A stretch of DNA of 64,000 nucleotides, taken from Silvanigrellaceae bacterium (GTDB lineage: Bacteria > Bdellovibrionota_B > Oligoflexia > Silvanigrellales > Silvanigrellaceae). Both the position numbers and the translations under genes were made by a program. The stretch lies in contig JBMSQQ010000001.1 of the NCBI GenBank assembly GCA_049423385.1, positions 25,492 to 89,491 of the forward strand, in the 5' to 3' direction. The notes beneath the pieces were generated by a model. The model was not told the DNA's origin, ran no database searches, and saw only the letters and a list, made by a program, of their open reading frames with translations. Shown one piece after another: positions 36,905-53,673 of this stretch (positions are counted from its first letter, which is position 1; each line of letters begins with the position of its first letter).

Positions 36905-38038
36905 TTACGCCAGTCGAAGGAAAGCAACAATCAATGCCATGACCACCAGATTCACGAGCGCCACAGGCAACATGTACACCCAACCCACGCGCATCAGCTG
37001 GTCGTAGCGGAAACGCGGAAGTGTGAAGCGCACTTGAACAAACAGGAACATGAAGATGGCCACTTTAGCGATGAGAACGCCCAGGCCAATCAGAGCAGCC
37101 ACCCAGGTTGCAGGCTCTGCCGTGAAGATCGGAGTCAACATTGCAACCAGTTGGCCATGCGGAAGCCAAGGAATCTCGTAGCCGCCCAAGAACACACAGG
37201 TGGTCAGAGCCGACAACGTGAACATCATCGCGTACTCGCCAAGGAAGAATAGAGACCAGCGCATGGAGCCGTATTCGACAAGGAATCCTGCAACCAGTTC
37301 CGCTTCACCTTCCGCAAGGTCGAATGGAAGCCGGTTGGTTTCTGCAAACATTGTGACGACAAACAAAACGAAAGAAATCGGCGAGAGGAAGATGCCCCAC
37401 TTGGGCAAAAAGCCGATCGTTTCCGACTGAGCTGCAATCATTGTTTGAAGATCGAGTGTTCCGTAAATGAAGACCATCGGCAGCAAAGCCAATCCCATGG
37501 CAAGTTCGTAGGAAATCATCTGGGCAGAAGCGCGCAAGCCACCCAACAAGGCGTACTTGTTGTTCGAGGACCATCCAGCCAGCGCAACCCCATAGACACC
37601 CAACGCGGACATCGCGAAGAGATAGAGGAATCCGGCATTCAAGTTCACTGGTTGCATATTGATGGTGTGTCCGGCAACGACAATTTCCTTGCCGAGCGGA
37701 ATACCTTGAATTGCGAGAAGACCCATCACCGCAGGAACAATTGGAGCAAGAATATAAAAGAACTTGTTGACGTGCTTGGGGACAAAATCCTCCTTGAACA
37801 GGAGCTTGATTGTGTCAGCCAGGGGTTGCCCGAGGCCAAAAAGCTTGAAGCCAAACAAACCGACGCGATTGGGTCCGATACGGCGTTGAATGAACGCCGC
37901 CTGACGTCGCTCGACCCACACCATGATGGGCGCCACTTGCAATGCAATCACGAGGGCAATCGCAATTTTGCCGATGCCGGCTACCAGAGCAACGTTGCTG
38001 TCCAGAAACTGAACGAGAGCGCTTGTTGAACCTTCCAT
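36905..38038 (-). CDS. nuoH: NADH-quinone oxidoreductase subunit H
   Basis: ERR...IQ.R.GPNRVG, QMISYE, ETNRLPFDLAEGEAELVAG, PRFRYDQ. Confidence 0.96.
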   Translation of the reverse strand: MEGSTSALVQFLDSNVALVAGIGKIAIALVIALQVAPIMVWVERRQAAFIQRRIGPNRVGLFGFKLFGLGQPLADTIKLLFKEDFVPKHVNKFFYILAPIVPAVMGLLAIQGIPLGKEIVVAGHTINMQPVNLNAGFLYLFAMSALGVYGVALAGWSSNNKYALLGGLRASAQMISYELAMGLALLPMVFIYGTLDLQTMIAAQSETIGFLPKWGIFLSPISFVLFVVTMFAETNRLPFDLAEGEAELVAGFLVEYGSMRWSLFFLGEYAMMFTLSALTTCVFLGGYEIPWLPHGQLVAMLTPIFTAEPATWVAALIGLGVLIAKVAIFMFLFVQVRFTLPRFRYDQLMRVGWVYMLPVALVNLVVMALIVAFLRLA

Positions 38039-38048
38039 GATGTTCTCC

Positions 38049-38414
38049 TCAATCCCAGTTCAATGCGCCGCGACGCAGGATGTAGATGTAACCAACCACG
38101 AGGGTGCCAACAAACAGCGCGACTTCGATGATTCCAAACCATTGCAGCTGGTCGAACAACACAGCCCAAAGGTAGAGAAAGATGGTTTCAATATCGAACA
38201 AGATGAACAGGATGGCAGTCAGATAAAATTTGACCGACAGACGCTGACGCGCGGTTCCCACCGGCGTCACACCACACTCATAAACATCGAGCTTGGCCGG
38301 GTTGGGTTTTTTGGGACCCAAAAGGAAAGATGCAATCGTCGCGCCGCCTGCAATCAGCAATCCCAAAACGAGTGCGACCAAAATGGGAAGATAAGGGTTG
38401 ATTGACGCTGTCAT
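38049..38414 (-). CDS. nuoA: NADH-quinone oxidoreductase subunit A
   Basis: YECG, FYLTAILFILFDIE, GALNW. ATG after GGAGG. Confidence 0.95.
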   Translation of the reverse strand: MTASINPYLPILVALVLGLLIAGGATIASFLLGPKKPNPAKLDVYECGVTPVGTARQRLSVKFYLTAILFILFDIETIFLYLWAVLFDQLQWFGIIEVALFVGTLVVGYIYILRRGALNWD

Positions 38415-38486
38415 CGCCAACGCCTCCAAAAAAGTCAAAAATTGGGTGCGGCACTGGCCTTAACCCATAAACGGATCTGGAACAAG

Positions 38487-39539
38487 TTAACGCAGGGCAC
38501 TCTCCAGAGAGAGGGCTCCCCGAAGCACCATTGCGGCTGCCAAACGTGAAGTTTGCATTTGCAGATCACGCGCCGGACAAAGTTCGGCGACATCGACCAC
38601 ACGACACATTTCGCGAGACATCACATCTTCCACGCATGGCCACAGAGTTTCAACCGGAACACCCAAAGAAGTTGAGGCACTCGTGCCCATTGCTGCAGCA
38701 ACGTGGAAAACATCGAGATCAATCGACAGATGAACCTGGCCAGAGGAGCGCACCGGATCGCACCAATGACTCAACCAATCCTGCAAATGCTCCCTCAAAG
38801 AGCGTTTAGGGTTCTGCGGAACGTTCCAAAAGCGCCAAGGCTCGGCGCCCGCGCAGTATTCAGCAACAGATACGCTCTTTGCGTGAGCATAATCCCACAG
38901 GCTCTGCGGATTTCGCTCACGCTGTAAACCAATTTCAAAGAGGGCGGCACCCTCTGCGACTCGATTGCCGAGATTTTCGATCACACGACGAAAGGGAGTC
39001 CCGCTGTTGATTTGCCCGTTGACCACGGGGCGAAGATCAAAATGAGCATCAAAGTTCACAATCGGAAGAGTTCCAGCGCAGCTGCGTGCATGACCGGCGT
39101 ACGAACCAAAACTGAAGTCATGTCCACCACCAATCACATGCACACGACGAGCTCCCTGCGCCAACGCCCAGTGGACAACATCGGCAAGCCGCGCATGTGT
39201 GTCGGCAATTTCGTTTTGCAAAACAACATCGCCGAGGTCGACCCAAGCAGCGCCGAACCATTCACCACCATTGAGACGAGAATCATATAGACGATAGAAC
39301 GCCTGGCGGAAGGCATCGGGACCAGCACTGGCCCCCACATGACCATGATTCAACTCCACACCGCGATCGTCGGGAATGCCTACAATCACATGTTTATTGC
39401 TGAACAGCGGGTCCGAAGCTGTTCCGTCTTGCTGAAGCTCAAAAATCTGAAGATTGCGGCCCAGCATTTCCTCGCGCAAAGCTGCAATATTGAAATTGAC
39501 AGGAGACAAATACGAGCCGGGAAAGGTGGAAGGCAACAC
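38487..39539 (-). CDS. hutG: Formimidoylglutamase / arginase-family ureohydrolase
   Basis: D.GV..N.G..GA..GP, GGGHD, NFDAHFDLR, NSGTPF, IDLDV, ELCP. Confidence 0.82.
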   Translation of the reverse strand: MLPSTFPGSYLSPVNFNIAALREEMLGRNLQIFELQQDGTASDPLFSNKHVIVGIPDDRGVELNHGHVGASAGPDAFRQAFYRLYDSRLNGGEWFGAAWVDLGDVVLQNEIADTHARLADVVHWALAQGARRVHVIGGGHDFSFGSYAGHARSCAGTLPIVNFDAHFDLRPVVNGQINSGTPFRRVIENLGNRVAEGAALFEIGLQRERNPQSLWDYAHAKSVSVAEYCAGAEPWRFWNVPQNPKRSLREHLQDWLSHWCDPVRSSGQVHLSIDLDVFHVAAAMGTSASTSLGVPVETLWPCVEDVMSREMCRVVDVAELCPARDLQMQTSRLAAAMVLRGALSLESALR

Positions 39540-39611
39540 GATTCGGTGAACTCCGCGCTGAGAGAGACGACCTCGAGCCGCCTCCCGGGAGCATCACCAA
39601 CTCAAAAATGT

Positions 39612-39815
39612 TCAAGCAGGTTTCTTGTCCGAAGGCTTGCTTTCAGAAAGTCTCTTTTTACCCAATTGTTTTTCTATGTTCCGAAGAATACGCTGCCGCA
39701 AAGCCGGGTTATCATCAAGGATGATCTTCAACAATTCGATGTCATCATTGGTGCGAAAGGCTCGCTTCTTTTTGGGATCATGTTCCAGCTTGGCTTTGGG
39801 TTTGTCGTTGCTCAT
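39612..39815 (-). CDS. Small basic hypothetical protein (67 aa)
   Basis: GAGGGGG RBS before ATG; fills the gap between co-oriented genes. Confidence 0.6.
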   Translation of the reverse strand: MSNDKPKAKLEHDPKKKRAFRTNDDIELLKIILDDNPALRQRILRNIEKQLGKKRLSESKPSDKKPA

Positions 39816-39895
39816 GCAAGTCCCCCTCTTTCCCCTGGGATCGGCATAACAGGGGGCGTTCTTTCGGAGAAAGCTGCAGGGCAGGAACTTTGACG

Positions 39896-41062
39896 TCAGC
39901 TCAGGGCATTGCGCAAATCGTCGACCAGGTCCTCGGCACTTTCGATACCCACCGAAAACCTCAGCAGATTTGAGTCAATACCAATCTTCTTACGGTGCTC
40001 AGGCGGAACGCTGGCATGGGTCATTGTTTCCGGATGATTCACCAGCGACTCAACCCCTCCCAGGCTCTCGGCAAGACTGAAAACCTGCAGGCGGCTCAAA
40101 AAGCGCTTCACATCATCGAAAGAACCCTTGAGACGAACACTGACCATTCCAGAAAAGCCGGACATTTGTTGGCGAGCAAGTGCGTGTTGGGGATGTTGCT
40201 CGAGACCAGGAAATATCACTTCGGAAAAACCCGACATTCCAGTGAGTGCCTGGGCCACTTTGCAGGCATTTTCATGATGCCGTTGCATGCGCAAAGCCAA
40301 AGTCTTGATACTGCGCAAGAGAATAAAACACTCTTGAGGAGCATTCACTGCACCACCTGCAAATTGAATAAAGCGCAATTGCTCGGCCAGAGTGTCGTCG
40401 TTGAGCATCAGAGCGCCGCCAACGAGATCAGAGTGTCCGCCAATGTATTTGGTCGTGCTGTGCAATACGATGTCAGCACCCAAAGACAAAGGTTGCTGGA
40501 AAATCGGCGAAGCAAAAGTGTTGTCGACAACCGTCATGGTACCGTGCTTACGCGCCAAATCTGCAACTGCCTGAATGTCAACGATGCGCAGCAATGGATT
40601 GGTCGGCGTTTCTATCCAGACAAGGCGGGTTTGTTTCTTGAATAATGGCTTCAATGCGGCCGGATCTCGCATGTCCACGAAATCGAATTCAATACCGTAT
40701 TTCGCAAACAGGCGCCGAAACAAGCGCCCCGTTCCGCCATAGACATCATCGCAAACCAAAACATGATCGCCCGGATTCAAAAGTTGAGCGATGGCATGCA
40801 CAGCAGCAAGACCTGAAGCGAAGGAAATGCCATGCTTGGCGCGCTCAAGTGCTGCCAATGCCGATTCCAGAGAGGTTCTGGTGGGATTTCCACCGCGCGA
40901 ATAGTCGTATCCCTTGTGTTCGCCGGGACCCGACTGAACATAGGTTGAGGTTTGAAAAATGGGCGTCATGATGGCACCGGTCATCGGTTCCGGCTCAACC
41001 CCGGCATGAACGCAAACTGTTTCAATTCCATGTTTCGATATCGCACTTGGTCTGTTCTGCAT
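39896..41062 (-). CDS. metB: Cystathionine gamma-synthase/lyase (PLP Cys/Met metabolism family)
   Basis: YSRGGNPT, ETPTNP, VDNTF, HSTTKYIGGHSD (PLP Lys), SLGGVESL. Confidence 0.88.
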   Translation of the reverse strand: MQNRPSAISKHGIETVCVHAGVEPEPMTGAIMTPIFQTSTYVQSGPGEHKGYDYSRGGNPTRTSLESALAALERAKHGISFASGLAAVHAIAQLLNPGDHVLVCDDVYGGTGRLFRRLFAKYGIEFDFVDMRDPAALKPLFKKQTRLVWIETPTNPLLRIVDIQAVADLARKHGTMTVVDNTFASPIFQQPLSLGADIVLHSTTKYIGGHSDLVGGALMLNDDTLAEQLRFIQFAGGAVNAPQECFILLRSIKTLALRMQRHHENACKVAQALTGMSGFSEVIFPGLEQHPQHALARQQMSGFSGMVSVRLKGSFDDVKRFLSRLQVFSLAESLGGVESLVNHPETMTHASVPPEHRKKIGIDSNLLRFSVGIESAEDLVDDLRNALS

Positions 41063-41101
41063 TGAGCGGATTCTCCATTCGCTTACGTGATCGATTGAAG
41101 T

Positions 41102-42403
41102 TCAAAAATAATGTTGCATTCCTACAACCCAGCCTTGACGCTTGCGCAGTCCAGCCAGAGCATGCGCATAATCTGCCCTCAACCTGAGTCTTGCAACAGG
41201 GCGAAGTCCGAGCCGCAGTCCGAGCCCGGCACTGGCCGCTGCAGGGTAGGGCCATTCGTTGAATGATTTTCCGGCATTGCCTGAATCCACAAACACAACA
41301 GTCTGCAACACCACATTTTGATCGACGTAACTGACCCAGCGCTCCTCGGCATTGGCTGTCCATGCAACGCGTCCAATGCGCTCTCCTTCATCCATGGCCC
41401 GAACCGAGTCAAGACTCCCCAAACGCAATAACGAGAGCAAAGAGCTCCCGTTCGTCCAATTGCCTTGAAACCGGAACCCGACATTGTGACTTTCCAAAAC
41501 CCGAAAGAAATGAGTCCCGGAAAAAGACGCGGATTGAATATTGGACAGTCCGCTCCCAGGCTCTGGAAAAAGATTGCCAATATTGACCTCCAGGCGATGA
41601 CCTTCCCAGAGAAAATCGTAGAGATTCAAACGATTCCACCGAAAATAAATTTTGGACTGCATCCCGGTCTCAATCCGCCGATCGAACTGATCATATTCAA
41701 CGCTGGACTGAATGACTGTGGAATCCAGTCCACGCTCCAGAAATTCGACATTGACGCCCAGGTCGAAGGATTGAAATCTGCGCTGGGTTGTGAGGGAAAC
41801 CCTGCTCACCATGGCGAGAGGTGTGAAATAATTCCTTGTTCCCGGATCAAGATAAAAAAAAGGGCGATTGCCAACCTGAACTTCAACCCCGGATTTCCAG
41901 GCGGTTGAAAGAAAGTTCGGCTGTCGCCACCACAGATTGACTCCAGGCTCACCTGCATACTGCTCGTATTGCAGCCCAGCCTCGATGCCGCGCCCCAACA
42001 AATTCAAGTCGTACAGGCCAGCAACCAGAAATTCGACGCCTCCGCCGGTACCACCGCGCAAAACCGGCGTGAGTGTCCACTTTTCACGGAAGTCAAAGCG
42101 CAAATTTGTGCGACCCTCAGTGCCAGCCTCCAATGCAACTTCCACCGAAACAAAAAAGTTCGTGTTCCTGAGTCGCTGCGCTACCGCCTCGACTTCAGCC
42201 TCCGAGACGATTTGTCCTGGTTCGAGTCCAATTTCCCTGAAAACAAATTCTTCTGTTGTCCGCACCAGGCCAACCAATTGTATGGCGCCCAGAGTCAATC
42301 GCCTGGAATCAGATTGAATTGGGGCGGGCACGTTTCCTTGCGCCGCAGAATTCAAAACCAGGCAGCACAGCAATAGAATGGCGGAAAAGGGCAGATGTTT
42401 CAA
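41102..42403 (-). CDS. Omp85-superfamily outer-membrane protein (single POTRA plus barrel)
   Basis: Signal peptide, POTRA-like GLVRT..E...RE...PG..RL.NT.FF, NLLGRG, VRA motif, FVDSG, terminal Phe. Confidence 0.78.
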   Translation of the reverse strand: MKHLPFSAILLLCCLVLNSAAQGNVPAPIQSDSRRLTLGAIQLVGLVRTTEEFVFREIGLEPGQIVSEAEVEAVAQRLRNTNFFVSVEVALEAGTEGRTNLRFDFREKWTLTPVLRGGTGGGVEFLVAGLYDLNLLGRGIEAGLQYEQYAGEPGVNLWWRQPNFLSTAWKSGVEVQVGNRPFFYLDPGTRNYFTPLAMVSRVSLTTQRRFQSFDLGVNVEFLERGLDSTVIQSSVEYDQFDRRIETGMQSKIYFRWNRLNLYDFLWEGHRLEVNIGNLFPEPGSGLSNIQSASFSGTHFFRVLESHNVGFRFQGNWTNGSSLLSLLRLGSLDSVRAMDEGERIGRVAWTANAEERWVSYVDQNVVLQTVVFVDSGNAGKSFNEWPYPAAASAGLGLRLGLRPVARLRLRADYAHALAGLRKRQGWVVGMQHYF

Positions 42404-43353
42404 TGGAATTTCACCTCTGCGAGTCCGGCACGCTGCAATAGATTGTTCACGCGTGAAAAAACATCCTGCTTTCCAAGTTCAACGACAAGAAGCTTCGCCA
42501 TTTCTCCGGGAGTGAGATTCCTGTTTTTCACCGACTGGAAAAACGGATAAACCACATCTTGATTGAAGAGGCTTTGAGCTGCAATCGCAAAGGAAAACGG
42601 AGCGCACATTTCAAGCGCACCCGAGTCCACATAACGCCGCAGCAATTCATCGGATGAATATGGAACACGGCGGTTGAAAATTTTGACCCTTGAATTTTTT
42701 TCCACCTCGACCCACACCCAGGTGGCCAAAGGTGCATCAGAACGGTTGGGCAGTTTTTCAACAAACGGATAACCTACGCTGCCGCAATTGAACCAGACAT
42801 TCCCCTTGTGTTCGTGTCTTCCCAGATAATGACTGTGACCGTTGAAAAAAAATGTTGTTTCGCCCGAAGACTTCTCGTCGTGGGAAGAATTGAAGGCAGA
42901 GGAAAGGGAGGACTGCTGAACAAAGAAATCAGGCACCCGATTGTTCCCTTCAACTGCTCCATGCACTGCCACGAATGGATCATCTTTGGCAACCCAGCGA
43001 TCAACACTGATCGCCTTGATGCGCGACAAGCGATCGCCCATGCGTTGAACTGTCCACGGGACAAACTTCCACAGCGGACGGGTGAATTTCTCCTCATCGG
43101 GATTCGCTGCGCATTGAAAAAGATAATCTTCATGATTACCGCGCAAATGTGGACATCCCAACTCAACAAGTCGATCATGAACAGCCGCAGGATCTGGCCC
43201 ACCGTCGAAACTGTCGCCCAGGCAAACCTTCTGGAAATGTTCCACTTCGCGTTGCCTGGAAAATTCACGCATATCGTCGAGAACTGCTTCCAGGGCCGTC
43301 ATGTTTCCATGCACATCGGTGAAAAAGGCGTAGGCCCTGATGGCATCAGACAT
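42400..43353 (-). CDS. Calcineurin-like metallophosphoesterase
   Basis: DVHGN, GD, RGNHE, VHG, GHSH, N.GSVG. Confidence 0.88.
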   Translation of the reverse strand: MSDAIRAYAFFTDVHGNMTALEAVLDDMREFSRQREVEHFQKVCLGDSFDGGPDPAAVHDRLVELGCPHLRGNHEDYLFQCAANPDEEKFTRPLWKFVPWTVQRMGDRLSRIKAISVDRWVAKDDPFVAVHGAVEGNNRVPDFFVQQSSLSSAFNSSHDEKSSGETTFFFNGHSHYLGRHEHKGNVWFNCGSVGYPFVEKLPNRSDAPLATWVWVEVEKNSRVKIFNRRVPYSSDELLRRYVDSGALEMCAPFSFAIAAQSLFNQDVVYPFFQSVKNRNLTPGEMAKLLVVELGKQDVFSRVNNLLQRAGLAEVKFH

Positions 43354-46333
43354 CTGTTTCCACCTGTGGCTCAATGGTTGGCGTCTGGCCAAAATCGATG
43401 CCAAGAACTCGAGCGAACAATTGCGCCAATGGAGTATGCTGAAGCTTGGGATCGCGCGGTATCTGCGCACGATCCAAAAGTTCCAGCGTTGGTTCATGCT
43501 GCAAAAGATCGTCGGTGAGTGGGGCAATCACGGGCTTGCGGCCCAGATCGCTGTCGGGTCGTGAAAAAAACTGAATTCCCGTGTTGTGCAACCAATGGCG
43601 AGGCAACAGAACCTTTGCTGCCACCGGATCCACGTAACCCTCTTCGTAAAATTGAAGGAATGCATCCTCGTCCGGGTGATACATCTTGTCGCCAACAATC
43701 CAATGCCCAATTGCAGCAAGGTGAACACGGATTTGGTTGGTGCGGCCTGTCTGAGGCATGCAAGCAAACAAGGTGTAATCCTGCCATTGCGAGAGTCGCA
43801 GGCAGTGGGTCAGCGCATCGAGCCCTTCCTCAGGATTGTGCCAAAGCTTCAATCGGATGCGCGAATTGATCGCCGGTCCTATTGGCAGCGCAACCCGGAA
43901 CTCATCCGGAAGCGAACGCGTTCCCTTGCAGACGGCAAGGTACATTTTCTTGACCGAGGACTCGCGGAAGCTCAGGGAAAGGTCCCGTCGCAGTGGCGTG
44001 CTGCGCGCGCAAACAAGTATTCCTGAAGTCTCGCGATCGATCCTGTGCACCGGTGCAGCGTCGGGGTAACCCATCTTTTTTGCAATTTCTATAAACGTAT
44101 TCTTTCCGTAAAGTCCTGCTGCATGAACAACAAGATTACCTGGCTTGCAAAAAACGGCCGCATCTCCATCATCATAAACGACATCCACATTGGTCATCAT
44201 GTCGGGTTCGTATTCGGGTGGATGAAACAACCAAATCTGGTCGCCCTGCTTGAGCACATAGGTTGACTTTACGGAGACAAGATTGTCGGGCGCCGCATCG
44301 CTGATGTGGTTCTTGGGCGAGTTTTGTTCCACAAGAACTTCACCAATTTCGATGCGCTGTTGCCAAATATCACGATTGTGGAACTTGAATTTCTCGCCGA
44401 GATGACGATCGATTCGCAGTCCGACCCCGACGTGTTCCAATCGCCCTCCAAGCCTGCGGAAATGAATTTTATCGAGTGCCACCCTTTGCGAACGCCGTCT
44501 GGAGATACGCGCCCTCAGCATGCTTTGGAGGACCTTCTCCGGCAGTCCCTCCTCGGATTCAAGCTCATGGTTGGGATCTGCCGTCTGCAACCGCTTCCCA
44601 GCAAGACCTGCAAACGCCGACATCGCCTTCAAGACAAGGTCAGGTTCAACGAACGTGCAATCTTGAACGTCCGGCTCGAGGCAATCAAAAAGAGCCCGCG
44701 CTCCACCACCCGTCAAAATCAATCTGGCAATCCGGTGCTGCCGGCGAAGCACATCCACAACACCACTGAACTGCAAAAGAAGACCACGCAGCATGGACAC
44801 ACGCGTCGAAAAAACCTCGGGAGCGTTTTTCAATTCAGCAAGTGAATTTGGAAGTGTCACCTTCGGGAGTCGGGCGGTTTTCTCATGCAAGGCCTGCAAC
44901 CCCATTGCAGGACCCGGCAGAATCAAGCTTTCGATGATTCCGGGCTTATCATTGACCACAATTCCAGTCAGCGCCGTTCCGACCGACAAGACCGCGACCG
45001 CAGCACCCGCATCCTGCGCCGCACGAACGGCCGTCCAGGCCTGCAGAGCACGATCGACACCCATTTCATTCGGAGCATAGTCGGCTTCGAGCCCTGCAGC
45101 ACGCAGCACTGAAAGCGAATCGACTGGAGTGAGAATGATTTCCCGACCCAGTGCGGGTTGCGACATCAATGCCGACTCGATCCCGTAGACCACCTTCATG
45201 GATTGACCCGCGTGTGCCACAGCCGACCAGATGAGTTCGATTCGAGTGGAATCTGCAACCCCTGCACATATTTTCTGTGCGAGTTCTGTTTTGGCAAAAA
45301 GTTTCGACTCGGCCAGGCTTTTGCGATCGAGCAACGCCCAGTCGCAGCTCCCGGAGGAAATTAGACTTCCGCGCTCGCATCGCCAATGAACCTGCGTGTT
45401 GCCAAAGTCGAGACAAATTTTCGCAGCTGGTTCATGAAAACCAACATCGGCTGCGAGAATGGGATCCTCAACGCCTTCCAAAAGGAGACCACCTTCGGCG
45501 GAAAGGCCAACAAATGCTCCTGTGCTTTGTCCTTTGTTGACCGACAATTTTGTTCCCAATGGCAGGGAACGCTCGAGAACCAGGTGACGCAGTTGTTCGG
45601 CTGTGCGCTCGGTGAACAGATAATCGGCAAGCTCTTTTTCAATTTCCTCGGCGACGATTTCGCTCAGGCACAAAGACATCGAATTGGAAAGTTGAGAGCG
45701 ATTGATGCCCCACATTTGAAGAACACTTCCCGCTTGCGCGACGCTTGCGGGTGCTTGAACAAGATTCAATCCAAGACCGATGCTCACAAAATGAAGCTTG
45801 TCGGCTCGAAAGGATGACTCACAGAGAATTCCTGCGAGCTTTTTCGGAACGGCGGTGGAACGAGCGCCCACATTTTCGGAAGGCCACGCCCAAACATCGT
45901 TCGGCCATTTGAGCTTTGCCTCCAGCGCTGGCTCGCCGGCAAGGAAGCTGGAAAAAGTCATCATGTTCGACAATCGGGAACGCGCTCTCCAGAGGGCATC
46001 TGCAATTGCACAGCCAACCGCAAGACTCAGCCAGCCAATCGGAATCCTGAGAAGATGACCCGGCACGACAAAAGTGCAAGGTCCAAAAATTCCAGCCTGG
46101 CGGACTGCCGAGACCAAATCATTTTTCTCAAACGTCTGGGCCTCGACGGGTGAGCGTGAGGTGACCTTTTCATTTTCAATCTCCGCCTGACTCCAAACAC
46201 TCCCGGCACGGCCCCGGCCTGCTGTTTGTGTTCGGCACATGACGACAAAAGAGTTTTCGAGGCCCTCATTCTTGATGAGGGTTCTCGCCATATCCATCGT
46301 CGAACTTGCGGTATCAGTGAAAAATGTCTTCAT
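43346..46333 (-). CDS. Fusion of biotin-protein ligase (BirA, no HTH), type III pantothenate kinase (CoaX) and RluA-family pseudouridine synthase
   Basis: BirA: QTAGRGR, KWPND, KLAGILCE, IGLGLN. CoaX: DFGNT, GVDR, GTALT, I.PG, LTGGGA. RluA: KP..L.VH, HRIDRETSG, TGRTNQIRVH, IVGDK.Y. One uninterrupted frame. Confidence 0.88.
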   Translation of the reverse strand: MKTFFTDTASSTMDMARTLIKNEGLENSFVVMCRTQTAGRGRAGSVWSQAEIENEKVTSRSPVEAQTFEKNDLVSAVRQAGIFGPCTFVVPGHLLRIPIGWLSLAVGCAIADALWRARSRLSNMMTFSSFLAGEPALEAKLKWPNDVWAWPSENVGARSTAVPKKLAGILCESSFRADKLHFVSIGLGLNLVQAPASVAQAGSVLQMWGINRSQLSNSMSLCLSEIVAEEIEKELADYLFTERTAEQLRHLVLERSLPLGTKLSVNKGQSTGAFVGLSAEGGLLLEGVEDPILAADVGFHEPAAKICLDFGNTQVHWRCERGSLISSGSCDWALLDRKSLAESKLFAKTELAQKICAGVADSTRIELIWSAVAHAGQSMKVVYGIESALMSQPALGREIILTPVDSLSVLRAAGLEADYAPNEMGVDRALQAWTAVRAAQDAGAAVAVLSVGTALTGIVVNDKPGIIESLILPGPAMGLQALHEKTARLPKVTLPNSLAELKNAPEVFSTRVSMLRGLLLQFSGVVDVLRRQHRIARLILTGGGARALFDCLEPDVQDCTFVEPDLVLKAMSAFAGLAGKRLQTADPNHELESEEGLPEKVLQSMLRARISRRRSQRVALDKIHFRRLGGRLEHVGVGLRIDRHLGEKFKFHNRDIWQQRIEIGEVLVEQNSPKNHISDAAPDNLVSVKSTYVLKQGDQIWLFHPPEYEPDMMTNVDVVYDDGDAAVFCKPGNLVVHAAGLYGKNTFIEIAKKMGYPDAAPVHRIDRETSGILVCARSTPLRRDLSLSFRESSVKKMYLAVCKGTRSLPDEFRVALPIGPAINSRIRLKLWHNPEEGLDALTHCLRLSQWQDYTLFACMPQTGRTNQIRVHLAAIGHWIVGDKMYHPDEDAFLQFYEEGYVDPVAAKVLLPRHWLHNTGIQFFSRPDSDLGRKPVIAPLTDDLLQHEPTLELLDRAQIPRDPKLQHTPLAQLFARVLGIDFGQTPTIEPQVETDV

Positions 46334-46340
46334 CTTGCCA

Positions 46341-47291
46341 TCACGTCATTCGATGCAGCTGGAGGCTCATGTCCACCCAGGTGGCCTGGTGAATCAAGGC
46401 TCCCGAACTCAAAAAGTCGATTCCCAATCCCGCATAAGTTGCGATATTTTCTTCGCTCAAATTCCCGCTGACTTCCAATTCAATCTTCCTGCTGCCTTGA
46501 TTGCGTTCCGCGACGGCAATCCTGATGTCATCGACGGCAAAATTGTCGAGCATGATAACGTCGGCACCTCCCGCCACGGCTTGTCTGAATTCACTCAGGT
46601 TTGTGACTTCGACCTCAAGACGTGTCAGCAATGGAACACTTTTTTGGGCAGAGAAGAGGGCATCGGGTATCCCCCCAAAACTGCGCAGATGATTTTCCTT
46701 GAGCATCAAACCCGTGTCCAGCGAGTGGCGATGATTGCGAACTCCAGCAAGACGGGTTGCATATTTCTCATAAAGACGCAGCCCGGGCGTCGTCTTTCGG
46801 GTTTCCAGCAACTTCGGACTGCGTGCCTGTGCACGGGCAGCCGCCGACTCGACAATCGCCAGCATTGCCGCGCTTTTGCTGGCGATTCCACTCAGGCGTG
46901 CAGCCAAATTCAACGCAACGCGCTCACCCAGCAACAAACAGCGGGCATCGCCAATCCCACTCAAAATGACATCACCTTTTTTGACATTGGCACCATCTGA
47001 AAATCGGCTTTCCAGTCGGCACGGTACCGCAGCGTGTGTGCGATGAAACACCGCTGCCATCAATGGAAGTCCGCACAACACAAAATCCTGCTTGGCAACA
47101 ATTTCGACACGCATGGGAGGAGCGTCTGGGGATTGGCTCCAAAGACTCACATCACCCCCGCCGGAATCTTCTTCGAGCCAGGCATCGACATCCCTGAAAA
47201 CGCGCTGGGGCGAAACACCGAAAAGGCTCACAAGCTGCTTGTCCACCCACGCCGGGTTGAGCTCGATTGTCTGTTTTTGTTGCTGAACCAC
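46341..47291 (-). CDS. nadC: Nicotinate-nucleotide diphosphorylase (quinolinate phosphoribosyltransferase)
   Basis: ERVALN, ETRKTTPGLR, NHR, LKENH, EVEV, IMLDN, EVSG. GTG start after AAGGAG. Confidence 0.93.
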   Translation of the reverse strand: MVQQQKQTIELNPAWVDKQLVSLFGVSPQRVFRDVDAWLEEDSGGGDVSLWSQSPDAPPMRVEIVAKQDFVLCGLPLMAAVFHRTHAAVPCRLESRFSDGANVKKGDVILSGIGDARCLLLGERVALNLAARLSGIASKSAAMLAIVESAAARAQARSPKLLETRKTTPGLRLYEKYATRLAGVRNHRHSLDTGLMLKENHLRSFGGIPDALFSAQKSVPLLTRLEVEVTNLSEFRQAVAGGADVIMLDNFAVDDIRIAVAERNQGSRKIELEVSGNLSEENIATYAGLGIDFLSSGALIHQATWVDMSLQLHRMT

Positions 47292-47391
47292 AGCCAAACT
47301 CCTTGCTGCCGCCTTGGACTTTCCGCAGCCGACGACTATTGTGACTTCATCTGCAACCAATTCCTGTGCAACCTCAGTAGAGGCCAACGAC

Positions 47392-48867
47392 ATGGACATG
47401 GGTCTACCATACACTCCCTTGATTGAAAGCCTCGAGGAACAGGTGGCTCAAGGCCTTTTCACGGCCTGGTCTTGCGCCCACCGAAGTGGTGCAATTTCAG
47501 CTTTCTACGCCGACGAGGCCAGCCCACGCGACTGGCTTCTCGACCAAAACCCCGAGCTGCATCCCCATCAGCGCACCTTTCGCGGCTGGATGCCGTCATT
47601 TGATCTCGCGAGCTTGACAAAGCCCTTGCTGGCCAACGCATGGCTGCGCCATTCACTGGGTGCGGACGCGGTGCTGTGGTGCGCCAGCCCATTGGCAAGC
47701 CTGCTTGAACCAAGAACAGAAGAGGGCCAGACGCTCAAGGACTGGGCCGAGAAACATTCATGGCTGACCCTGGCGCATCTGCTCAATCACACGAGCGGAC
47801 TGCAGGCCTGGACATGGTTTGGACGAGCCCTGTGGCATTTCACCCCACACGGATCCTCGCGGCATGGTCGAACCATCAATCGCGCTCCAGAACTTCAAAA
47901 CGATAGCGAAGGCCGAATCGCCCGCACCGCACAAAGGGACCTCACAAATCACATTCTGAGTCTTCCACTTCAAAAGCCAGAAAAAGAACCAACATCGATA
48001 TATTCGGATCTGAATTATTTCATCCTCGCACGAGTCATCGAAAATCTGGCAGTCAACCGTTTTCCGGGCTGGAAAGGAATCCTTGAAGAACTCAATGGAA
48101 TCTGGGGAAGCGAATTCTGGCACGCATCACTTGATCCCGAACGAAGCCAACAGGCCATTCCGTTTTTTCCGTACATCCATTCCCAGGTGATTGCGCATCT
48201 CTATGAGAGCAGAAAGCTGAACAACCATGCGGGTGAATTTGGTGCCGCACACGACACCAATGCCAACATCCTGGCAACCGATTTTCGCGTCGCGTGTCAT
48301 GCTTTTCCATTGGTTTCCAGTCACGCCGGAATGTTCGGAAGTATTCTCGATGTGGCAAAAGCTGCTGATTTCTTCATCACAAGTCAGAGCGAATTTTCGG
48401 CAATGGCAGTTCCTTCCGGTATCGAAAGCAAGCGATTCCGCTGGGGCCTCGACACCCCCTCCAATGAAAATTCGACGGCCGGGCTCAACATTTGGTCCCC
48501 TGCAAAAAGCAAGTCGATTTTCGGACATCTTGGCTACACGGGAACATCTCTCTGGATGGCAGACGATGGACAATTTCATGCCCTGCTGACCAACCGCACC
48601 GCCCAAAGGACATCCATTGGATCAGCAATGGTGCCGCGCATTCTTGTCTTTCAAAACGACTCAACGCGCGAACCTGAATGCTGGGTTCGGAAGCACGACA
48701 AAAAGATCACGATGCCATGGCAAAAAATCTGCTGGCAAGACGCATTTGCCTTGAGTTTTGAATACTCGAGGGGCGTGACGCGGTATTGGGACCGCAACAA
48801 CATTCGCAAGGCTCCCGATTTGGCAAATGTCCGCCGCTCGACCGGTCGATACTTATGGTCACACTGA
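47392..48867 (+). CDS. Serine hydrolase, beta-lactamase class C / PBP-like fold
   Basis: FDLASLTK (SxxK), LLNHTSGL, YSD, HD.NA, HAGMFG, GHLGYTGT. Confidence 0.82.
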   Translation: MDMGLPYTPLIESLEEQVAQGLFTAWSCAHRSGAISAFYADEASPRDWLLDQNPELHPHQRTFRGWMPSFDLASLTKPLLANAWLRHSLGADAVLWCASPLASLLEPRTEEGQTLKDWAEKHSWLTLAHLLNHTSGLQAWTWFGRALWHFTPHGSSRHGRTINRAPELQNDSEGRIARTAQRDLTNHILSLPLQKPEKEPTSIYSDLNYFILARVIENLAVNRFPGWKGILEELNGIWGSEFWHASLDPERSQQAIPFFPYIHSQVIAHLYESRKLNNHAGEFGAAHDTNANILATDFRVACHAFPLVSSHAGMFGSILDVAKAADFFITSQSEFSAMAVPSGIESKRFRWGLDTPSNENSTAGLNIWSPAKSKSIFGHLGYTGTSLWMADDGQFHALLTNRTAQRTSIGSAMVPRILVFQNDSTREPECWVRKHDKKITMPWQKICWQDAFALSFEYSRGVTRYWDRNNIRKAPDLANVRRSTGRYLWSH

Positions 48868-48922
48868 AAAGATGTTAGCTTCGTGTGTCCAAAGCCGTCT
48901 CACAACAGGGCCATGACACATC

Positions 48923-50173
48923 ATGAAAAAGCAAAGACCGTTCTATAAAAAGCCTTTGTTCATTGTCATCGCAGCATGCCTTTGTGCCGCGATCGGGATG
49001 ATCAGCTGGACGCGTTTCAACCGTCTGGCAAAGTTCGAAAAGGATCAGAATGCCAAGACCGTTTCCGTTGTTCGGCGTGATATTCGAAAAGACCTTCTCC
49101 TCACCGGAAAAATTCTCCCATCAAGCTCCATCGCGGTATACTCACCGGTTTCAGGACAGTTGAAACAAATCCATGTGCAGGAAGGGCAAAAGGTTGACGA
49201 AGGACAACTTCTTTTTGCAGTTCTGCAGGACACATCGGGACAAAAGGAACTGGAGGCACGTCAAAGCGAAGTGCAACGGACGCGAATCGAACTGCAGGCT
49301 GCCGAAGAAAACCTGGATCGCCGACAAAATGTGAAAGACCTTTTCTCGCAGGCTGAGAATGAAAAAGCCGAGAACGATTTTGAACGCGCACGTCTTGCCT
49401 TCAACACAGCACGTGAACAACTCAATCTGCTCGAGAACTCCCTTGGGCTTTCGGGAGCCGCCAACCCGGATCGCAAAACAAAAAAGAAGGATTCGTCACG
49501 CACTTCGATCATCTTCGTCAAGGCACCCAGACGTGGAGTTGTGACGTTCTTGAACAAAGCCGTGGGCGAAAGCGTGATGGCGACTGCCGAAAGCGCAGAA
49601 GCAACCGGTCGAGAAGTTCTAATTGTTTCGGACACAGAGCAGATGATGGTCCGCTCCAAAATCCTCGAATCCGACCTTGCCATCGTGAAAACTGGTCAAC
49701 CGGTTCAAATCAAGCTCGACGCCTTTCCGGAAAAATCATACCGAGGAAAAGTCAATCGCATCAGTCAACAAGGAGTTGAAGACAAAGCCGGAGGATATAC
49801 CTATTTTGTCACCGACATCCTGATAGAAAGCCCGGACCAGGATGTGCGGGCCCAGATGAATGCCAGCGTTGAACTTGTTGCTGCCGAACGCAAGGATGTC
49901 CTGGCATTGCCAGCCAATGCCGTGGCAACCCTGTCGGGAAACTCCGTGGTAGAACTGCCAAGATCGTCGGCATCTGAGCCGGCTCGCTACAAATCGGTCA
50001 AAACCGGAATCATGACGGACTTGTGGATAGAAATTGAAGGCGACGCATTGAAAATCGGAGACAAGGTTCTGGAAATCGACTTCGCCAAACTCGATCTCAA
50101 AAAACTTGCCGAGGGCCGCCTCGGTGTCGAGAACGCCGTTGATTCCGCCCGCGGTTCAATTCATCAAAAGTGA
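48923..50173 (+). CDS. MacA-like periplasmic adaptor (MFP)
   Basis: N-terminal TM anchor, SPVSG..V.EG..V..G lipoyl halves, coiled-coil hairpin, AP..G.V. Confidence 0.88.
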   Translation: MKKQRPFYKKPLFIVIAACLCAAIGMISWTRFNRLAKFEKDQNAKTVSVVRRDIRKDLLLTGKILPSSSIAVYSPVSGQLKQIHVQEGQKVDEGQLLFAVLQDTSGQKELEARQSEVQRTRIELQAAEENLDRRQNVKDLFSQAENEKAENDFERARLAFNTAREQLNLLENSLGLSGAANPDRKTKKKDSSRTSIIFVKAPRRGVVTFLNKAVGESVMATAESAEATGREVLIVSDTEQMMVRSKILESDLAIVKTGQPVQIKLDAFPEKSYRGKVNRISQQGVEDKAGGYTYFVTDILIESPDQDVRAQMNASVELVAAERKDVLALPANAVATLSGNSVVELPRSSASEPARYKSVKTGIMTDLWIEIEGDALKIGDKVLEIDFAKLDLKKLAEGRLGVENAVDSARGSIHQK

Positions 50174-50183
50174 GAAGAACACC

Positions 50184-52250
50184 ATGAATCGGAATGGAGA
50201 CTTTCTGTTTCGGTTGAAACAGGTGAGCTATACCTACAGCGCAGTGAACACTCCATCATTCGTGGCTCTTGAGAACATCAACCTTGAGATACGCCACGGA
50301 GAATTCGTTTCCATCACGGGACCCAGTGGATCGGGCAAGTCCACCCTCATGCACCTGCTCGGACTCATGGCCAGCCCGGGGCGAGGTGAGCTGTTTTTGA
50401 GTGGTATGCCGACTGCAGAATTGAACTCAAACCAAAAATCCATTCTACGAAACAAGAAAATCGGATTTCTCTTTCAACAATTTTTTCTTGTCCCCCAGCT
50501 GACCGTGCTGGAAAACATTCTGTTGCCGACAGTGTATGCAAATGAATCGTCAGATCGAGAGTCACTCCGGGAAAAAGCAATCAATCTCATTGCCCGGTTC
50601 GGATTGGACGGTCAGGAACACAAACGCCCTGGTCAGCTTTCGGGCGGCCAGCGACAAAGGGTGGCGCTCTGCCGTGCTCTCGTGATGGATCCCGAGGTCC
50701 TGCTCTGCGACGAACCGACAGGTGCGCTCGACAGCAACACGGCTCAAGAAGTTTTAAGAACGCTGGACATGCTTCACGCTTCCGGAAAGTCCATTGTCGT
50801 CATCACCCATGACACAGCGGTTGCTGACAGGGCAGAGAGAATCATTCGCATCGTCGATGGGAGAATCGTCGACGATGCAACAAATTCAAGACGGTTGACT
50901 GAGCCCTTGCCGGATGAGGATTTCAGAAAAGAAACGAAGATAACCTCCCACTGGGCCTGGACGCGGGACAAGATCCTAGGGCAACTGAAGACAATGTTTC
51001 TACCCACATTCGAGGCTTTGAAAACCCAAAGACTGCGGACTGTCTTGACAATGACCGGACTCCTCCTCGGAGTCTCGAGCATTTTCATCATGCTCACCCT
51101 CACTGGTCAGGTTGAAAAAATATTTGAGGAATTTTTTGCCACACAAGGTTCGCGCAAGGCCTTTGTCAGCTTTGATGGACGTACTGCAGAAAAGACGGGA
51201 GCACCACGGTGGCGCGGCTTGAATGTCAAGACGGATTTGCCGGTGCTGAATGATCAGCTGTCTCACTATGGTCGAATCGATCCAACGATCGAAACCAGTG
51301 ATTGCAAAATTTCATCTCCCTTTGGCAGTTTTCAAGGTAGCCTGAGCGGTGTCAATTCCCTGAAAGAGGCACAGGAAAACAGCCTGCGCATTGCGACCGG
51401 ACGCATGCCCATGCCACACGAATTTGAATCAACCACTCCGGCGCGGGTTGCCCTTCTCGGCAGTGATGCGGTCGCAAAGCTCTTTCCAACCAGGGGATCA
51501 CGGCAAAAAAAATCGGACGCCACCATTGTCGGTCAACATCTGGTGATAAGAGGCTGTCAATTTGACGGAATCATCACAATCATTGGCATCCTTGAACCCA
51601 TCGATTCCCTCTTTGACCGCGACATCAACTCAACACTCTATATTCCGTCCCAAACTCTGCTTGCGAGTGGCTCATCCATGTACAAAACCAGATTTGTGAC
51701 AGTGCCGAATCCAGGGGTAAGCCCCACCTGGTTTGCAAAACACGTGATAGGGAAATTGAGCCTGGCTACCGAAAACAAATTTCCATTCCGATTTTTTGCG
51801 GCAGAGCAGGAGCTGGAGAAGTTCAATCTGATGATGGGCATTCTCACGGGTTTGACTCTTGTGATTGGCGGTCTGTGCACACTCATCGGGGGCATTGGAG
51901 TCATGAACATCATGCTGGTGAATGTTCACGAAAGAATTCGCGAAATTGGAATCAGAAAAGCAGTTGGTGCGCAGGAAGGGCACATCAAAGGACAATTTCT
52001 GCTGGAGTCGACTGGCCTGTGCGCACTCAGCGGACTTCTTGGTGCCGGGTTTGGAGTTGTAGTGAGCATTTCTGCCTTTTCGGTCGCGAGAATGTTTCTA
52101 CCGAGGATTGCCAATCTCGAATACCAATTCGACCTCGCAGCTCTGGGCGTCGCACTGACGGTCAGTCTGACTGCGGGACTCGTTTTCGGCACCTGGCCCG
52201 CTCTCAAGGCAGCATCCATGGACGTTGTTGAAGCACTGAAGCAGGAGTAA
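50184..52250 (+). CDS. MacB-like ABC transporter (ATPase-permease fusion), copy 1
   Basis: GPSGSGKST, LSGGQRQR, DEPTGALD, ITHD; GGIGVMNIML..ERIREIGIRKAVGA. Confidence 0.92.
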   Translation: MNRNGDFLFRLKQVSYTYSAVNTPSFVALENINLEIRHGEFVSITGPSGSGKSTLMHLLGLMASPGRGELFLSGMPTAELNSNQKSILRNKKIGFLFQQFFLVPQLTVLENILLPTVYANESSDRESLREKAINLIARFGLDGQEHKRPGQLSGGQRQRVALCRALVMDPEVLLCDEPTGALDSNTAQEVLRTLDMLHASGKSIVVITHDTAVADRAERIIRIVDGRIVDDATNSRRLTEPLPDEDFRKETKITSHWAWTRDKILGQLKTMFLPTFEALKTQRLRTVLTMTGLLLGVSSIFIMLTLTGQVEKIFEEFFATQGSRKAFVSFDGRTAEKTGAPRWRGLNVKTDLPVLNDQLSHYGRIDPTIETSDCKISSPFGSFQGSLSGVNSLKEAQENSLRIATGRMPMPHEFESTTPARVALLGSDAVAKLFPTRGSRQKKSDATIVGQHLVIRGCQFDGIITIIGILEPIDSLFDRDINSTLYIPSQTLLASGSSMYKTRFVTVPNPGVSPTWFAKHVIGKLSLATENKFPFRFFAAEQELEKFNLMMGILTGLTLVIGGLCTLIGGIGVMNIMLVNVHERIREIGIRKAVGAQEGHIKGQFLLESTGLCALSGLLGAGFGVVVSISAFSVARMFLPRIANLEYQFDLAALGVALTVSLTAGLVFGTWPALKAASMDVVEALKQE

Positions 52251-52254
52251 AACG

Positions 52255-53673
52255 ATGAAAAAAAGACTATTGCAGTGCTTTATATTCTTCCACCTGTCAC
52301 TGTCCACAAGCCTTGCTTGGGCGGAAGATTTCTCCGAGGCATATGTTCCAACCGAACTGGAAATGTGGCTGCCTTCGTTTGCAAGAATTGTCGCACACCT
52401 CAACGAGGTTGATCCCACTCTCAGCCAGTTGCAGGAAGCCTTGAATGCGAAGGTCACTCAAGAACAAAGGCTCCTGCCAACCCTTTCCGCAGACGCAAAC
52501 CTTGTCCGCGGCCAGTCCAGTTCCTTCGAAGGCAACAGGGAAAACGCCTCGAACCCACGAACGACCGACCTGCAGCTCAATCTCACACTGCGACAAAACA
52601 TCTACAATGGTGGAGCAGATTGGAAGAAAATATCTCTTGCTGAATCGCGGGTGAAATTGACTCAACTGAGACGAGTGCTCCTTGTCCGCAACCATCTTCG
52701 CAATTGGCTCAGGGACACGGCCGGAATTCATCACCAGAAAAAGATTGTCTCGTACCACGTCGACGCAGCCGGCCAGGCCAAGGCATTGAATCTGCTTGCC
52801 AGCCGGAAGGAAAGCAGCGGCTTTCTCGGCAAGCGTGACCTGCTTGATTCACAAAGGGAATTGCTGCGGGTTGAACAGGAATCGATCGTTGCTGCCAACA
52901 CACTGGAGGAACTCAAGGGTCGCTTGCGCATGAATTATGGTGCTGAATTTGACGACTCAACGACCCCCTCGTTCTTTCAAAAAATTGCGAAGCAAAATCC
53001 GCAAGACCAGTTCAACAACAATTCAAGAACGAATGAAGGTGCGCCACAAATTCCGTCACTGTTGAACCTCGCAATCATGCGAGGAGAATATGAGTCGACA
53101 GTCATTGACGAAGGAATTGCGAAATCGTCAAGATTCACTCCGCGACTCGATGCAATTGCACAGGCAGGTCAAACCCACAGAATGGAAAAGGTCTCTGAAA
53201 ACGCCTCAGGCATCGTAGGATCCAATGGTATTTCAGGTTCCTGGGATTCGACCCGGAGATGGTCCATTGCGCTGGCGGGAGAAATCTCCATGAATCCCTC
53301 CAACGCATTTGGACAGATCGAGGAAAGTCGACAAAAAATAAAAACGGCGCAGCTGAATCAAGAAAAGCAGGTCCGCGAGACCCGCCTCGCGCTTGAGACC
53401 TTGAGGCTCAAACTCAAGCAAACTCGAATGCAGAAAAAATCTGCAGAGCAACTTCTTTCCATGACCTCGCAAATGCGTGAAAAAAACCAAAGGCTCTTTG
53501 AGGCTGGTGAACTGCCAATCGATCGATTGATCGCGACACAGCAAGATCTCAACCGGGACAGGATTGCGCTTGCAGTTGTTGAGCATCAGGAACTGCTCCT
53601 TGCGATGGATCTTCTGCTCTCCGAGAAATGGAATCTCCCGCCACACGCAGCTACCATGACGGGAATGCCATGA
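52255..53673 (+). CDS. TolC-family outer-membrane efflux protein
   Basis: Signal peptide, LP.L, LRQNIYNGG, repeated F.AG / E.SG helical motifs; context between two MacB genes. Confidence 0.78.
   Translation: MKKRLLQCFIFFHLSLSTSLAWAEDFSEAYVPTELEMWLPSFARIVAHLNEVDPTLSQLQEALNAKVTQEQRLLPTLSADANLVRGQSSSFEGNRENASNPRTTDLQLNLTLRQNIYNGGADWKKISLAESRVKLTQLRRVLLVRNHLRNWLRDTAGIHHQKKIVSYHVDAAGQAKALNLLASRKESSGFLGKRDLLDSQRELLRVEQESIVAANTLEELKGRLRMNYGAEFDDSTTPSFFQKIAKQNPQDQFNNNSRTNEGAPQIPSLLNLAIMRGEYESTVIDEGIAKSSRFTPRLDAIAQAGQTHRMEKVSENASGIVGSNGISGSWDSTRRWSIALAGEISMNPSNAFGQIEESRQKIKTAQLNQEKQVRETRLALETLRLKLKQTRMQKKSAEQLLSMTSQMREKNQRLFEAGELPIDRLIATQQDLNRDRIALAVVEHQELLLAMDLLLSEKWNLPPHAATMTGMP

Follow-up and report, generated by a model that had tools for sequence, protein, structure and literature searches.

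An order-wide BirA-CoaX-RluA triple fusion in Silvanigrellales: a new and most likely modular domain architecture

The biotin protein ligase (BPL) BirA and the type III pantothenate kinase (PanK) CoaX, which opens the pathway to coenzyme A, are known to occur on one polypeptide, and this double fusion is catalogued as NCBIfam NF009862 / PRK13325. Among pseudouridine synthases, yeast Pus8/Rib2 is reported to be bifunctional and essential, with a synthase-dead D211A mutant that is viable (PMC13142501), so that the essential half works without synthase activity. Here we analyse a 64,000-nucleotide stretch of a Silvanigrellaceae bacterium (GCA_049423385.1, contig JBMSQQ010000001.1, positions 25,492 to 89,491), referred to in full as the window, in which a BirA-CoaX unit continues in frame into an S4/RluA pseudouridine synthase. 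The triple architecture is real and, in these freshwater bacteria, found throughout the order Silvanigrellales. It is a new domain architecture that extends the double fusion already known, and it is most likely modular. A first-pass annotation, made from the sequence alone, had pointed to the earlier double fusions and knew of no published attachment of a pseudouridine synthase. This still holds: we found no description of the triple architecture in the open literature, with subscription journals and supplements outside the scope, and the accessible part of PMC8366970 contains nothing on the fusion.

The fusion gene P0001 is a single stop-free frame of 995 aa at window positions 43346-46333 on the minus strand. 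Its product matches the Pfam families BPL_LplA_LipB, Pan_kinase (residues 306-529) and PseudoU_synth_2 (residues 726-874), each above cut-off. An AlphaFold model built on 52 aligned rows has a mean predicted local distance difference test score (pLDDT) of 82.8 and resembles solved biotin ligases, type III PanKs and RluD/RluA/RluC. Frame, Pfam matches and fold thus bear out the proposal of one BirA, CoaX and RluA chain, and its position directly downstream of nadC is equally correct, with a gap of 7 bases and a TIGR00078 score over cut-off. The features of the locus are as follows.

46341..47414, minus strand: nadC, quinolinate phosphoribosyltransferase (TIGR00078, 261.7 bits against a cut-off of 198.4), ending 7 bases upstream of the fusion
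43346..46333, minus strand: triple fusion BirA-CoaX-S4/RluA (P0001), 995 aa, intact in 28 of 33 family genomes
45437..46333, minus strand: BirA biotin protein ligase domain, residues 1-299, lacking an N-terminal helix-turn-helix (HTH), with conserved GRGRxGxxW, KWPND, KxxGxL and GxGxN as in PDB biotin ligases
44582..45427, minus strand: CoaX type III PanK domain, residues ~303-584, with D309 and D427 kept, matching PDB type III PanKs
44462..44581, minus strand: CoaX-RluA linker, an acidic variable stretch followed by a conserved basic helix (residues ~598-616, 44542-44486)
44210..44461, minus strand: S4-like RNA-binding domain (residues ~625-708) that contains a family insert, aligning to the RluD N-terminal domain; Pfam S4 is matched by the free orthologues
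43499..44209, minus strand: catalytic domain of the RluA-family pseudouridine synthase, with Asp766 at 44038-44036 and HRxDRETSG invariant
43346..43498, minus strand: family-specific C-terminal helical extension and stop codon
42400..43353, minus strand: calcineurin-like metallophosphoesterase (Pfam Metallophos), whose ATG overlaps the fusion stop by 8 bases

The fusion is the family norm. All three domains lie in one frame in 28 of the 33 family genomes; in three further genomes (G017, G019, G030) a contig end interrupts the gene in a pattern compatible with the fusion, the synthase part of G019 not being found, and two differ (G021, G032). Because the same three-domain frame recurs intact in 28 genomes, the fusion is not an assembly artefact, and separate genes in the relatives, which would have spoken against the proposal, are not the pattern. 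Pigmentibacter and Fluviispira have recorded proteins of 1031-1044 aa (P0043-P0045) under the name 'type III pantothenate kinase', and in JGI the fusion is mostly labelled as a 23S 1911/1915/1917 synthase, with one automatic name giving all three activities. Four other sequencing runs, all from one study, list no indel or joint at the gene. One contig covers the whole gene with no gaps and 4 substitutions, though it may itself be the source of this DNA. The comparative evidence for an intact frame is stronger than the read evidence.

Beyond the first-pass annotation, we find an S4-like domain (residues ~625-708) ahead of the catalytic synthase domain and a BirA that lacks the N-terminal repressor HTH. 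Biotin protein ligases are recognised by the motifs GRGRxGxxW, KWPND, KxxGxL and GxGxN, which we checked against PDB alignments. P0001 carries the GRGRxGxxW loop (GRGRAGSVW, 46219-46193), KWPND (45910), the catalytic Lys in KxxGxL (KLAGIL, 45841) and GxGxN, as in group I enzymes, and the columns R40, G41, R42, G44, W47, K142-D146, K165, G168, G186, G188 and N190 are invariant. The model shows the BPL fold with the C-terminal beta domain, similar to M. tuberculosis and other BPLs, and the catalytic domain begins at residue 2. The fusion is the only biotin ligase found in the genome: the second BPL-clan match is LplA-like and LipB is a separate gene elsewhere. A gene for the carrier protein BCCP is present. 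A family-specific insert follows the biotin-binding loop (residues 50-100, window ~46186-46034) and is partly disordered in the model.

The synthase domain carries the HRxD motif with the catalytic Asp (HRIDRETSG, 44047-44021, Asp766), the KP and GRTxQIR motifs and the RluA-family fold, and D766 is kept in all 52 alignment rows, some of which are near-duplicates. It is the most conserved of the three domains, with a mean identity of 0.67 against 0.41 and 0.35 for the others (CoaX 0.35). Searches of PDB and Atlas, made in view of a presumed resemblance to eukaryotic Pus9/RPUSD2, lead to RluD/RluC and to unnamed bacterial clusters. The NCBIfam scores for RluD, RluC, RluA and TruC are 79, 59, 70 and 58 bits against cut-offs of 351, 378, 286 and 328. 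Since P0001 lies this far below the equivalog cut-offs, and the genome holds two further RluA-family genes of which one is more RluD-like, the database label 'RluD' is unsupported. A free orthologue exceeds the TIGR00005 cut-off (201 against 192.7). By the Nei-Gojobori method on 9 genome pairs, the ratio of nonsynonymous to synonymous rates (dN/dS) is 0.05-0.17 for BirA, 0.04-0.11 for CoaX and 0.013-0.037 for the synthase core (7 pairs, the other 2 being saturated), rough figures since dS is often above 1. By these comparisons, purifying selection acts on each of the three domains.

In 28 genomes outside the family we found 24 CoaX loci. Of these, 17 encode BirA joined to CoaX in a protein of 474-598 aa, and in 14 of the 17 this double fusion follows nadC. 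As the double fusion is common in the class outside the family, it is older than the triple one. The synthase has an orthologue in 100 of the 104 class genomes searched, and outside the family this orthologue is free, a short frame with no fused partner, in 73 of the 74 listed genomes, the exception being G052. In 39 of these 74 genomes, from 8 of 15 families, it stands head-to-head with smpB at a distance of at most 350 bases; of the remainder, 8 have smpB within 6 kb, 26 on another contig and one has no smpB (one match per genome, chosen by hand, with kin not independent). In all 8 family genomes examined smpB faces pilD, and in the genome studied here smpB and the transfer-messenger RNA (tmRNA) gene are on other contigs. 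The fused synthases form one clade (98/98), and so do the CoaX domains of the fusions in a quick tree that uses 14 of the 28 fusions and contains long branches. Because the orthologue outside the order is free and often head-to-head with smpB, a rearrangement likely preceded the fusion. The first-pass annotation had offered either physical coupling of cofactor status to RNA modification or a neutral fusion of neighbours. A modular fusion fits better than coupling, and the genes were not old neighbours.

The neighbours of the free orthologue are RNA-related (smpB, queG, mnmG) and not cofactor genes. This neighbourhood hints at a tmRNA or tRNA target of the synthase, while synteny alone could explain the link. 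E. coli tmRNA is known to carry pseudouridine 342 (PMC11925731). None of the 21 loci scanned contains a tmRNA gene. The smpB-linked loci include L066-L069, L075, L076, L080, L082 and L083. In G052 (L065:5805-7730) the same synthase is fused to the epoxyqueuosine reductase QueG, and in G036 (L071:5644-6693) QueG lies directly upstream of it; both loci have tRNA-Thr(cgt) and a shikimate dehydrogenase gene upstream.

Three derived rearrangements dissect the fusion, each in a genome of 1.2-1.8 Mb. G021 encodes RluA separately from BirA-CoaX, whose BirA part is interrupted by an assembly gap; the coaX stop and the synthase start share a 17-base A/T-rich overlap (L046:6822-6838) with a +1 frame offset. 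G033, from the sister family, encodes CoaX-RluA and a separate, convergent BirA on the opposite strand. In G032 BirA is joined in frame to RluA, both intact, and CoaX is cleanly gone. The fused clade includes G021 and G033 in the CoaX tree, and G021 and G032 in the RluA tree. G032 alone among 34 order genomes has a type-I-like pantothenate kinase gene, encoding 240 aa at L123:1818-2540 after valS. The gene has 31% GC content against 37-41% in its surroundings, and the valS beside it is 53-54% identical to that of same-genus genomes and 27-29% to that of other families. This kinase is likely a horizontally gained replacement. Loss of CoaX beside a likely replacement kinase suggests that CoaX is a working kinase, dispensable to its neighbours on the chain once replaced.

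The linkers fit such independence. Across 28 sequences their lengths range from 7 to 72 and from 29 to 71 residues, a ~2- to 10-fold variation, and the model leaves the CoaX-RluA linker disordered, at residues 581-602. The predicted template modelling score (pTM) is 0.50 for the full-length chain and 0.77 for the RluA module alone.

Taken together, we assign a probability of about 0.68 to a reading in which the activities would be independent, the chain would dimerise through CoaX, the fusion would have arisen by rearrangement and its retention would reflect the difficulty of reversal. One polypeptide would carry three likely active enzymes as beads on flexible tethers. BirA likely biotinylates the carboxylase carrier proteins of the cell, CoaX likely phosphorylates pantothenate as its sole PanK, and the S4/RluA domain likely forms pseudouridine within an RNA stem-loop. 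Type III PanKs are dimers, and the fusion chain would therefore dimerise through CoaX. The class ancestor would have carried nadC-birA::coaX and, elsewhere in its genome, an unfused synthase gene arranged head-to-head with smpB, until a rearrangement in the Silvanigrellales ancestor set the synthase in frame behind coaX. From this position it would now be made from the nadC operon transcript and the BirA start codon. The join likely persists because its reversal needs both a new stop and a new start, not because the activities communicate. The parts are likely independent because, in a few relatives with small genomes, one of them seems to have been split off or lost.

Several observations weigh against this reading. 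The join is kept across at least 7 genera and in proteins down to ~35% identity, a long retention if the join were purely neutral. A single metagenome assembly stands behind each of the rearranged forms. In G021 the reading frame shifts by one base, which could be a real split, slippage or an assembly error, and G033 sits on a long branch. No CoaX was found anywhere in G032, a genome that is 72% complete, and the best matches of its kinase are TIGR00554, with a score of 115 bits where the cut-off is 235, and, at 4e-19, solved type I kinases. The low pTM comes from a monomer model on 52 sequences, with which contacts in a dimer remain compatible. A further tension lies in the linker helix (~598-616), which has a dN/dS of 0-0.10 and Arg609 in 52 of 52 rows, and which is absent from the free orthologues. 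It has low pLDDT in both the full-chain and the synthase-only model and is placed by neither, so that its partner may be RNA, the other dimer subunit or BirA. This helix with its invariant Arg609 is a feature that independent activities leave unexplained. The helix is ruled out as a biotinylation site, position 607 being Arg in 35 of 52 rows.

Another explanation is that the activities are independent but selection maintains the join because it co-locates them or sets their dose: BirA and CoaX could be tethered to ribosomes or tRNA by the basic helix and the S4 domain, the CoaX dimer could make the synthase bivalent, or its attachment to essential genes could secure its expression. All but one of 28 sequences have a basic helix (net +1 to +7), directly ahead of the S4 domain. 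If this helix folded only when bound to RNA, models of the protein alone would give it a low score. The synthase is kept in nearly all class genomes. However, in G032 helix and synthase persist although the dimerising CoaX domain is gone, and the free orthologues manage without the helix. We regard this explanation as unlikely.

Functional coupling, in which the ligand state of BirA or CoaX gates the synthase, or RNA binding gates BirA or CoaX, through the linker helix and possibly across the CoaX dimer, would link vitamin supply to translation. Retention across the whole order speaks for such a function, as does a fusion-specific helix with an invariant Arg609 and low dN/dS, which is kept in the BirA-RluA form G032 and is absent from G021 and G033, where RluA and BirA are on separate chains. 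The synthase is also the most conserved domain. On the other hand, the spacers flanking the helix vary widely in length, CoaX can be excised and both junctions can be broken, as the rearranged relatives indicate, and outside the family nearly every orthologue is free and has RNA-related genes, not cofactor genes, as neighbours. In group II BirA the repressor domain senses biotin, and it is this domain that P0001 lacks. Coupling is thus rather improbable, and we are more doubtful still of its most elaborate form, a three-enzyme machine in which biotin or pantothenate status would switch the synthase through the Arg609 helix as an allosteric vitamin link to tmRNA, tRNA or rRNA modification.

That CoaX might be a catalytically dead scaffold was raised by its altered motifs. 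The first-pass annotation had noted a changed CoaX motif, and Ser does stand in place of Asp, but the change appears to be a sign neither of decay nor of the RluA join. The Asp of DxGT is replaced by S450 in 47 of 52 rows (SVGTA, 44986), and the GG of GGxIxPG by E-S/N, in this order alone, with E468 in 45 of 52 rows. Between genera, CoaX has diverged more than the other two domains (mean identity 0.35), and its TIGR00671 score of 54.5-56 bits is just below the cut-off of 58.2. However, its Pan_kinase score is 64.2 bits against a cut-off of 24.7, its modelled fold resembles 3djc, 2f9t, 5b8h and 2gtd, and the remaining two aspartates are kept, D309 of DxGN (DFGNT, 45409) in 51 and D427 of GxDR (GVDR, 45061) in all 52 rows. 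Two solved type III PanKs, 5b8h and 4o5f, have Thr at the Ser450 site, and 5b8h was solved with pantothenate. In the rest of the class, all 16 double fusions of BirA and CoaX that could be read lack the DxGT Asp, which is present in 5 free CoaX proteins of another clade. From this alignment the altered motif predates the RluA join and is class-wide in nadC-birA::coaX fusions. In Oligoflexia loci with nadC and an HTH-less BirA-CoaX (L094-L109, L112), S, A, T, N, C or G stands at this position. The fusion is also the sole Pan_kinase match of the genome (91% complete), and no type I PanK was found in G000, G021, G025 and G027, two of which are single-contig genomes, yet a coaBC homologue is present in the genome. 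A search for type II PanK (PF03630) gave no match anywhere, controls included, and is hence no evidence of absence. With a likely replacement kinase in the one genome that lacks the CoaX domain, a dead CoaX is very improbable.

It is barely credible that the frame arises as an artefact of assembly or read-through, or that translation of the RluA part begins separately at an internal start: a conserved Met605 lies just ahead of the synthase and one database gene call (P0111) starts near it, but 28 of 33 genomes are intact, the 1031-1044 aa proteins come from named species, and Leu at position 605 in 7 of 52 rows together with the lack of a shared ribosome-binding site rules this start out.

The nadC gene precedes the fusion gene in 30 of 32 family relatives; the metallophosphoesterase gene follows it in 16 of 32 and a metC-like gene in most others. 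Promoter and terminator scans of window positions 38000-51000 stayed at chance level (7 against 6.0; 24 against 17.7, standard deviation 4.5). Upstream of nadC, a 517-aa open reading frame (47314-48867) corresponds to genes at the same position in relatives with a weak match to Pfam Beta-lactamase (serine hydrolase). Further on, judged from translations alone, two tandem MacB-like ABC-permease fusion genes (50106-52250 and 53628-55763, plus strand) are accompanied by an efflux adaptor (48923-50173) and a TolC-like gene (52255-53673).

The architecture has been masked by single-function database names such as 'type III pantothenate kinase' and 'RluD', and it marks a whole bacterial order. Its relatives offer a natural dissection, in which each junction is broken once and the middle domain is deleted in the sole genome with another pantothenate kinase. 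This makes the gene well suited to a clean test of whether a fusion that endures for long must have a function behind it. As the fusion is present in cultured species, coupling is directly testable, and the class-wide synthase subfamily head-to-head with smpB is a testable lead on the RNA target.

Among known systems, PRK13325 (592 positions) shares the same two enzymes in the same order, as do the 474-598 aa class relatives. P0001 differs from PRK13325, which has its source in Neisseria, in lacking the HTH and in carrying the extra S4/RluA module, and it is not a member, since its residues 1-581 reach 28.9 bits where the cut-off is 761. For CoaX, the Burkholderia-type type III PanKs 5b8h and 4o5f are the top profile matches and share Thr/Ser for Asp and the same TxE stretch after GTA, but they are free enzymes that keep the GG of GGxIxPG. 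The synthase shares the catalytic HRxD motif, the S4 domain and the fold with E. coli RluD and RluC, S4-bearing members of the RluA family (TIGR00005), and it falls far below the cut-off of each of the RluD, RluC, RluA and TruC families. Other RluA-family proteins have partners as well: ~600-aa proteins (P0082-P0089) join an RluA-family domain to rhodanese and PF17773 domains, a partner that is presumably of the tRNA hydroxylase TrhO type. No other cofactor-enzyme partner of the synthase was found among the 31 longer proteins and 20 of the 150 best representatives examined. In yeast, the DRAP deaminase Rib2 serves a step of the riboflavin pathway and Pus8 is an RluA-family enzyme. Pus8/Rib2 thereby offers the closest precedent for joining a pseudouridine synthase to an enzyme from a cofactor pathway. 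It is eukaryotic, has two domains, another partner and a known target at tRNA position 32, whereas P0001 joins three domains.

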